A stretch of 64,000 nucleotides of DNA, from NCBI GenBank assembly GCA_965226995.1, contig CBDDFK010000009.1:27699-91698 (forward strand), in the 5' to 3' direction. The notes under the pieces are model-generated. The model did not search any database, was not told the DNA's origin, and worked only from the letters and a program-made list of their open reading frames with translations. The stretch is from Filomicrobium sp. (lineage in GTDB: Bacteria; Pseudomonadota; Alphaproteobacteria; Rhizobiales; Hyphomicrobiaceae). Below, piece after piece: positions 53,736-54,292 of this stretch (its first letter is position 1; every line of letters starts with the position of its first letter). Made by a program: the position numbers and the translations under genes.

Positions 53736-54292
53736 TTACACCAGCCGGCCTGTAAGCCGGGTTCTGTTCGGTCATCGATCAACAAAAAGCGAACCGCTTT
53801 GTTAGAGACGAGGCTCAACACCGGCTTGCCCAGTGTTGGCCAATCGCTCGACACCGGCTCGCGGGAGTGTAGACCAATCGCTCAACACCGGCTTGCCGAG
53901 TGTTGACCAAAAACCGAGACGACCATTCATCTAGGACGCCGGTTACCCGGCGCCTCCAGCAACCAACCCGGGCGACTCACCTGGAAACAGGTTCGATGCC
54001 GCATCCGAAGACGCGCATCCGGCCGCCCCTATTCGGTCTTGCTCCCGGTGGGGTTTACCTTCGCCGCGCCTGTTACCAGCCGCGCGGTGCGCTCTTACCG
54101 CACCCTTTCACCCTTACCCGGCACACCTTGCGGAGGCCGGGCGGTTTGCTTTCTGTGGCACTGTCCCTGGGGTCGCCCCCGGCGGCCGTTAGCCGCCACC
54201 GTGTTTCCATGGAGCCCGGACTTTCCTCTCCCGGCGGAGTGAGGGCCACAAAAGCCGCTCCGCCGGCAGCGGCCGTCCGGCCGACTGGTGTG
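53736..54292 (-). ncRNA. rnpB: RNase P RNA, bacterial type A, with a 150-nt insertion; ends approximate
   Basis: Minus strand carries GGAGAGGAAAGUCCGGGCUCC, GGGUGAAAGGGUGCGGUAAGAGCGCACCGCGCGGCUGGUAACAG, GGUAAACCCCACCGGGAGCAAGACCGAAUAGGGG, CCUAGAUGAAUGGUCGUC and ACAGAACCCGGCUUACAG. The P1 strands CACCAGUCGGCC (54279-54290) and GGCCGGCUGGUG (53739-53750) are fully complementary. Confidence 0.85.
53813..53910. repeat. three tandem 33-34-bp hairpin units inside rnpB
   Basis: GCTCAACACCGGCTTGCCCAGTGTTGGCCAATC, GCTCGACACCGGCTCGCGGGAGTGTAGACCAATC, GCTCAACACCGGCTTGCCGAGTGTTGACCAA. Confidence 0.8.

Follow-up and report, generated by a model that had tools for sequence, protein, structure and literature searches.

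The 64,000-nucleotide stretch of DNA analysed here (Filomicrobium sp., GenBank assembly GCA_965226995.1, contig CBDDFK010000009.1, positions 27,699 to 91,698; hereafter the window) carries on its minus strand the gene of a type-A RNase P RNA, rnpB, in which the region of the peripheral helix P19 is 150 nucleotides (nt) long and contains tandem copies of a palindromic repeat. The coordinates given below are those of the window, unless a related locus (denoted by L and a number) is named. The covariance model RF00010 (RNaseP_bact_a) matches positions 53737-54288 over its full length (model positions 1-367 of 367) with 276.9 bits, 2.8 times the gathering score of 100, and an E-value of 2.5e-89. 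In the Rfam alignment the conserved regions CR-I to CR-V are intact (GAGGAAAGUCCGG, GGUAAGAGCGCACC, AGAUGAAUG, ACAGAACCCGGCUUA); the two strands of P1 are complementary to each other, as are those of P2, and the pairing of P1 reaches C54290-G53739. By the model match and the P1 pairing the gene occupies 53737-54290, i.e., approximately 552-554 nt. The original prediction, made from the letters of the window, had put it at about 555 nt and had listed the structural blocks of a type-A RNase P RNA, each of which was found, and in the right order, on the minus strand. Neither a tRNA nor any Rfam family other than RNase P RNA scored above its gathering score in the 64-kb window. Most RNase P RNAs are 250-550 nt long (PMC2996960), and the expanded rnpB genes described in this work (520-590 nt) lie at or above the upper end of this range.

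The alignment takes up the extra nucleotides in one piece, inserted after model position 335; they lie between the P2 3' strand GGUCGUC (53918-53924) and the sequence ACAGAACCCGG, which runs from 53767; the P4 3' strand (CR-V, ACAGAACCCGGCUUACAG) and the P1 3' strand together occupy 53739-53767. Since the P2 3' strand ends at 53918 and the P4 3' strand starts at 53767, the predicted position of the insertion, 53768-53917, is exact, and the comparison with the covariance model, proposed as a check, places the extra nucleotides at the P19 position, outside the conserved helices. In the minimum-free-energy fold this segment is closed by a stem of UCGGUU (53912-53917) and GACCGA (53768-53773), the exact register of which is ambiguous. 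Folded in isolation, the 150 nt have an energy of -69.5 kcal/mol (z = -4.9 against shuffled sequences), and in the fold of the whole 554-nt RNA their mean pairing probability is 0.68 among themselves and 0.03 with the rest of the molecule; in silico, the insert is predicted to fold on its own and to leave the core fold undisturbed.

Tandem Repeats Finder reports within the insert a repeat with a period of 33 nt (2.9 copies, 81% matches, 53813-53910), while the repeat search finds three copies, 100, 61 and 94% identical to the reference, with spacings of 33 and 34 nt, which bears out the three tandem units of 33-34 nt claimed initially. Unit 1 (UCAACACUCGGCAAGCCGGUGUUGA, 53882-53906) forms a hairpin of 7 bp, a bulged U and 3 bp with the loop CAAG, and unit 3 (CCAACACUGGGCAAGCCGGUGUUGA, 53815-53839) forms one of about 9 bp. 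Unit 2 (53848-53873) is a decayed copy with 61% identity to the reference, an nhmmer E-value of 1.9 and a folding energy of -6 kcal/mol. Units 1 and 3 do not have 11 continuous pairs, which corrects the initial description of hairpins of 9-11 bp. A bulged U is also what folding shows at the position where a U-G wobble might have marked the RNA sense strand of the units; the bulged form is equally stable in either orientation, and this candidate strand marker was rejected. When the insert alone was scanned against Rfam, no known family was found for the repeats, the only matches being a chance miRNA match (E = 7) and an RNase P fragment.

The further imperfect hairpin that had been noticed after the three units is present at 53781-53803. 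It is A/U-rich (-6.3 kcal/mol) and lies outside the repeat family; no further copy of it occurs in the 64-kb window, and its assignment to another repeat family was dropped in view of this. With three G-C pairs and a U-rich tail it was flagged as terminator-like, and it is located upstream of the essential P4 and P1 3' strands.

The gene 5' of rnpB encodes an Amidase_2/PG_binding_1 protein (hereafter the amidase), and rnpB lies downstream of the amidase gene, as in the window, in 53 of 80 related loci. The distance between the amidase stop codon and the 5' end of P1 is 33 nt, not about 31 nt as estimated at first. A putative rnpB promoter is located at 54299-54328, with the -35 hexamer CTTGAC at 54323-54328, a 17-nt spacer and CCTTATT at 54299-54305; the hexamer overlaps the amidase TGA (54324-54326). 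The window and eight related loci (L108-L115) share the arrangement CTTGAC-N17-CCTTAT[A/T], with ACACCAG, where P1 starts, 6-8 nt further on; the motif is conserved among them, while the spacer sequences diverge. We take it to fit the alphaproteobacterial housekeeping promoter consensus. A scan with the strict E. coli-type sigma-70 consensus gave no promoter site at rnpB, and the proposal is therefore based on conservation and inference. As judged from these alignments, the window rnpB has a conserved promoter motif of its own, which largely answers the question of how it is transcribed: the putative promoter overlaps the amidase coding region, as was anticipated, at the stop codon, and the alternative of processing from a longer transcript is not needed.

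The gene downstream of rnpB (52457-53608, minus strand) encodes a 383-aa AAA_21-type ATPase, the best PADLOC match of which is the candidate defence protein HEC-01A (E = 4e-48); a 384-aa homologue stands downstream of rnpB in L112 and L115 too. A 465-aa version of this open reading frame (ORF), running into rnpB, was rejected as an over-extension by the ORF finder.

The repeat family in the window and beyond

The unit consists of a palindrome of approximately 25 nt, YCAACAC-loop-GTGTTGR, in which the loop is variable, and a linker of approximately 8 nt. A search of the window with the unit pattern gave 4 matches (0.00 expected) and a looser hairpin search gave 5 (0.28 expected), in agreement with nhmmer. 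Related units had been predicted in two intergenic regions, and they are real (45570-45634 and 51430-51454). The first belongs to a two-unit array on the plus strand at 45560-45658, upstream of the rsmH (mraW) region, with units at 45570-45594 and 45610-45634 and a 9-bp enclosing stem GTTGAGTGG/CCACTCAAC (45560-45568 with 45650-45658). The second is a mosaic site on the minus strand (51430-51510), located between an ion-channel gene and a glyoxalase gene, which comprises an intact unit (51430-51454) and, at 51455-51510, a truncated CGCACACCGGTTTACCGA unit next to one of a different subtype, CCAACGCGCGCTTGCGCAGCGTTGG, which is similar to the inner member of a nested pair in L001. The ion-channel gene (50514-51320, minus strand) encodes a 268-aa protein with Ion_trans as its single domain (E = 1.9e-43), of the type of bacterial voltage-gated cation channels.

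The window thus contains three loci of the family, and several more were found in relatives from the same clade. In approximately 890 kb, comprising the window and the loci then gathered, the nhmmer unit profile matched only the window and L001, L002, L004, L005, L090, L095 and L105, and it had no match in approximately 770 kb from other Hyphomicrobiales; among the loci examined, the family appears to be restricted to the Filomicrobium-like clade of the Hyphomicrobiaceae. Directly downstream of rnpB, L001 (5431-5597) and L105 (1-144) carry at least 4.5 tandem copies of CCAACACGACTTTAGGAAGTGTTGG with a period of 41 nt and identical spacers; the number of copies is a lower bound, as contig ends interrupt the array in both assemblies. 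The loops are asymmetric and reveal that the window units, like those of the L001 array, stand in direct tandem and not in inverted pairs. An intergenic two-unit array of L090 (2280-2350) is enclosed by a CCCACC/GGTGGG stem, and this array and the one at 45560 share with the expanded P19 the layout of a stem with internal hairpins. No target-site duplication, such as accompanies the terminal inverted repeats of a MITE, was evident around the units, and the 9-bp stem at 45560 may predate its array.

The initial suggestion that a dispersed REP-like element has colonised a permissive site of rnpB therefore holds as regards a dispersed, clade-specific palindrome inserted at P19, while the designation "REP-like" fits the form of the element only.

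Helix P19 and unit numbers in related genes

Relatives were found via the amidase in one-genome-per-species collections, which gave 80 loci, all from Hyphomicrobiales, the closest being Filomicrobium-like metagenome-assembled genomes (69-77% amino-acid identity). A metagenome scan with the P4/P1 3' strands added 27 loci, none of them nearer to the window than those already gathered. Together with contigs found via amidase homologues, these sources yielded 75 distinct rnpB genes. Promoter sequence, and no P19, came from the contigs with the closest amidases (83 and 77% identical; Logan contigs L108-L110, L113 and L116). All five of these short-read contigs stop within the first 30-190 nt of rnpB, which suggests a systematic breakage of assemblies in this gene, caused either by its conserved core sequence or by the repeats.

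In the 75 genes the region between P2 and P4, which corresponds to P19, has a median length of 22 nt (range 4-150 nt), and in 72 of them a closing helix of at least 3 bp lies within 3 nt of both its ends. The closing pairs vary by lineage (GC-GC-AT, CG-CG-TA, GT-TA-GC, AT-TA-CG, TA-CG-GC), a covariation that speaks for P19 as a genuine helix. The region exceeds 45 nt in nine genes, all of which are Filomicrobium-like and contain units, the window having the longest; the alignment of relatives, proposed originally as a test of lineage-specificity, has thus confirmed that, among these 75, the expansion is confined to Filomicrobium-like genes. The rnpB of E. coli MG1655 (377 nt) reads GACTGTC-CACG-ACAGAACCCGG, and its junction at the P19 position is indeed 4 nt long, as first stated (about 4 nt). 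Insertion into a bare junction of this kind was ruled out, as the relatives hold a P19 hairpin of 16-24 nt there, and for the same reason the event is to be regarded as an expansion of an existing hairpin by approximately 125-135 nt and not as the entry of 150 nt into a 4-nt junction. The empty form of P19 in L092 and L097, GCGGAAGG-GTTTATAT-CCTTCCAA, can be set beside the filled form in L001, GCGGAAGG-two units-CCTTCCAG. Judging from these alignments, the insertion site is the terminal loop of the ancestral P19 hairpin, the closing stem of which was kept.

Units of the family have also colonised another hairpin tip, located between P16 and P17 (model position 245/246), in L001 (5088-5170), L002 (5092-5170), L005 (approximately 5090-5170), L090 (8830-8970) and L115, and not in the window; this region measures 53-66 nt in the basal state and 116-191 nt when colonised. 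The genes of the clade can be arranged by the state of both sites. P19 is without units in L010 and L085 (rnpB of 425-434 nt, P19 region of 16 nt, P16/P17 region of 53-59 nt), in L003, L092 and L114 (416-431, 24 and 55-56 nt, respectively) and in L082 (465, 39 and 66 nt). It holds one unit in L112 (462, 49 and 63 nt), in L111 (453, 50 and 53 nt), in L005 and L002 (520-521, 50-51 and 123 nt) and in L090 (589, 51 and 191 nt, with four units in the P16/P17 region), and two units in L004 (494, 84 and 63 nt; the units are of different subtypes), in L001 (562, 91 and 124 nt) and in L115 (586, 120 and 116 nt; the units are followed by a tail). The window, with three units and another hairpin in P19, has values of 552, 150 and 53 nt.

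Several comparisons indicate that these states change readily. L002 and L090 have cores that are 100% identical and the same P19 region, and they carry two and four units, respectively, at the P16/P17 site, which points to recent tandem gain or loss. At the P16/P17 site of L001, a TCAACAC...GTGTTGA unit is nested in the loop of a CCACGCG...GTGTGG unit, and unit 1 of L004 matches the L001 unit exactly when reverse-complemented, i.e., one type of unit occurs in both orientations. Unit 1 of the window with the two bases that follow it (GC) is identical to P19 unit 1 of L115 over 27 of 27 nt, the cores of the two genes being 85.6% identical. The cores nearest to that of the window, L003 (88%), L092 and L114 (both 87%), carry no units, and the window lineage has therefore probably gained its own independently. 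In the group with one unit (L002, L005, L111 and L112) most of the 16 predicted pairs of P19 are kept on the RNA sense strand as they shift among A-U, G-U and G-C, which we consider modest comparative evidence that the hairpin persists as an RNA structure. The same expansions recur in separate assemblies (L001 = L105, L005 = L095).

Origin and fate of the expanded helix

We consider it likely that the window rnpB is the orthologous, functional type-A gene of this organism, and that its P19, enlarged by insertion of a repeat and tandem duplication, is retained and nearly neutral. A palindromic unit of approximately 33 nt would have been inserted into the terminal loop of P19 and then duplicated locally in tandem, by which P19 would have grown from an ancestral hairpin of approximately 16-24 nt to a multi-hairpin domain of 150 nt. 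Because P19 retains its closing stem, the added part most likely forms an independent expansion segment directed outwards from the catalytic core. P19, which stacks on P2/P3, varies in nature and can be missing altogether, as in E. coli and T. maritima; given this known variability and dispensability, the mature RNA most likely keeps the insert, which would be neutral or nearly so for catalysis. Variability of P19 in length and its sporadic loss have been described, as has the growth of RNAs by insertion of helices at helix tips (the accretion model; PMC12974513). The unit may have spread by transposition, by recombination with dispersed copies or by slippage during replication.

Several points weigh against this interpretation. 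The retention, processing and activity of the expanded RNA are predictions from sequence. Unit 2 is decayed, and hairpin 4, a weak terminator-like structure in the model, could cause early termination and lower the yield of full-length RNA. The three-unit state of the window is documented by a single assembly, and the searches found neither another assembly nor a closer relative; the number of independent gains is uncertain on a core tree built from approximately 350 nt. Finally, with 64 kb of the genome in view, a second, compact rnpB might be located elsewhere; a single rnpB is usual in bacteria, 98% of genomes having one hit each (PMC2996960).

Alternatively, the insert may be an intervening sequence, cut out (e.g., by RNase III) without religation, so that a two-piece ribozyme would be held together by P1, P2 and P4. 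Its site, at a hairpin tip closed by a stem, resembles that of rRNA intervening sequences in geometry, a nearly continuous, long, irregular helix is predicted for the P19 region of L004, and bipartite RNase P RNAs reconstitute activity in vitro. However, RNase III generally needs about two helical turns, and a closing stem of 5-6 bp that leads into a multi-branch junction of 7-10-bp hairpins should be a poor substrate for it, while the pairs kept through G-U intermediates in the hairpin of the one-unit relatives suggest persistence as an RNA structure. We know of no native fragmented RNase P RNA in bacteria, nor was one found in the literature searched, and excision is in our estimation improbable. 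A function of the expanded P19 of its own, kept by selection, for instance as a platform for protein binding or as a regulator of the stability or abundance of RNase P RNA, would be in line with the persistence of expansions in several lineages, with the strong conservation of the unit stem next to variable loops, with the identity of unit 1 to that of L115 in spite of the divergence of the cores and with the pairs maintained in the one-unit group. On the other hand, close relatives differ freely in the number of copies (0 to 3 or 4), sister lineages have no units, unit 2 is decaying and the same units stand in ordinary intergenic DNA, so that the conservation is better explained by turnover at the level of the family; we give such a function very little credence.

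It is extremely improbable, in our view, that the window rnpB is decaying or non-functional, or that its number of units is an artefact of assembly, the working gene being elsewhere or shorter. Such doubts are prompted by the limited part of the genome in view and by the ease with which tandem repeats are misassembled, the five Logan contigs of relatives all ending inside rnpB. They are countered by the intact conserved regions and the high score of the model match, by the syntenic position and the conserved promoter motif, by the equivalent expansions in independent assemblies (the two pairs of loci named above, and L002 and L090 with their common P19 region), by the length of the array, which at only about 100 nt fits in a single read, and by the 1.19-Mb length of the contig that carries the window protein.

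Beyond the preferred interpretation, i.e., a retained and nearly neutral expansion, the nested unit of L001 and the arrays enclosed by stems hint, in a small sample of sequences, at a preference of the unit for hairpin loops; in the case of rnpB, however, selection alone would give the same pattern. We hold it possible, albeit doubtful, that the unit is an active mobile element that prefers the loops of existing hairpins, its own copies included, and that it is now building expansion segments of the ribozyme at two tips. If this were true, the loop-targeting unit would illustrate, in nature and in a polymorphic state, the accretion by which rRNA and RNase P RNA have been proposed to grow, and the resulting RNAs (550-590 nt) would remain active or might be cut into pieces.

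Relation to known systems

By analogy, the closest precedent for a P19 built of repeats is provided by the STRRs (short tandemly repeated repetitive sequences) of cyanobacteria, which are heptamer tandem repeats. Their presence in helix P12 of the rnpB of heterocyst-forming cyanobacteria is given in the part of PMC2858038 that cites Vioque (1997, Nucleic Acids Res 25:3471), and P12 is termed there "sometimes dispensable (e.g. in cyanobacteria)". As far as this secondary description goes, the two cases are alike in that a genomic repeat family lies inside rnpB and lengthens a peripheral, dispensable helix. They differ in that the repeats of the window have a period of 33-34 nt, not 7 nt, each unit being a palindromic hairpin of approximately 25 nt; in that the helix affected is P19 of the catalytic domain (and, in relatives, the P16-P17 hairpin), not P12 of the specificity domain, and in another phylum; and in that the Filomicrobium-like units show nesting, both orientations, and two versus four copies on identical cores.

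With the REP, BIME and REPIN elements of Gammaproteobacteria the units share the form of short imperfect palindromes of approximately 25-35 nt, and in the window and the loci of relatives they appear to be similarly dispersed, mostly intergenic, often clustered and lineage-specific. Unlike REPINs, the units in the window lie in direct tandem and not in inverted pairs, and for this reason we did not file them as REP or REPIN; to our knowledge, no REP element has been described inside rnpB. Rickettsia palindromic elements are likewise selfish palindromic repeats, inserting in functional genes where the structure of the product tolerates them, but they are longer (approximately 100-150 nt), are best known from protein-coding genes and have no sequence relationship to the units of the window. 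The intervening sequences of 23S rRNA in Alphaproteobacteria and other bacteria are similar in that extra stem-loops take the place of a conserved hairpin's tip in a structured RNA that is essential, with a patchy phylogenetic distribution. They are, however, excised by RNase III with fragmentation of the rRNA, an outcome that the modelled structures make less likely here, and they are not dispersed tandem repeats.

As to P19 and expansion segments as such (PMC12974513), the insert has the same position between the P2 and P4 3' strands and is likewise closed by a helix. In contrast to a typical P19, which in the relatives is one short hairpin, that of the window comprises multiple hairpins, its source family can be identified and its growth is recent. 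No report of repeats in P19, of a P19 expansion built of repeats, of a Filomicrobium rnpB or of this palindromic family of the Hyphomicrobiaceae was found in the literature searched.

The clade offers a graded natural series (empty, with one, two, three or four units, and nested), in which the gain of expansion segments and the tolerance of a peripheral load can be tested. In addition, rnpB finders based on patterns or filtering by length may miss or truncate genes of this kind. P19, a helix of the catalytic domain, can apparently accommodate repeat-derived hairpins totalling more than 125 nt, and a second tip does likewise in relatives; the one precedent that we know of concerns the specificity domain of the cyanobacterial rnpB. 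The expansion of P19 by this repeat family follows a known principle, that of the STRRs in P12, and extends it to a new type of repeat, a new helix, a new domain and a new phylum.

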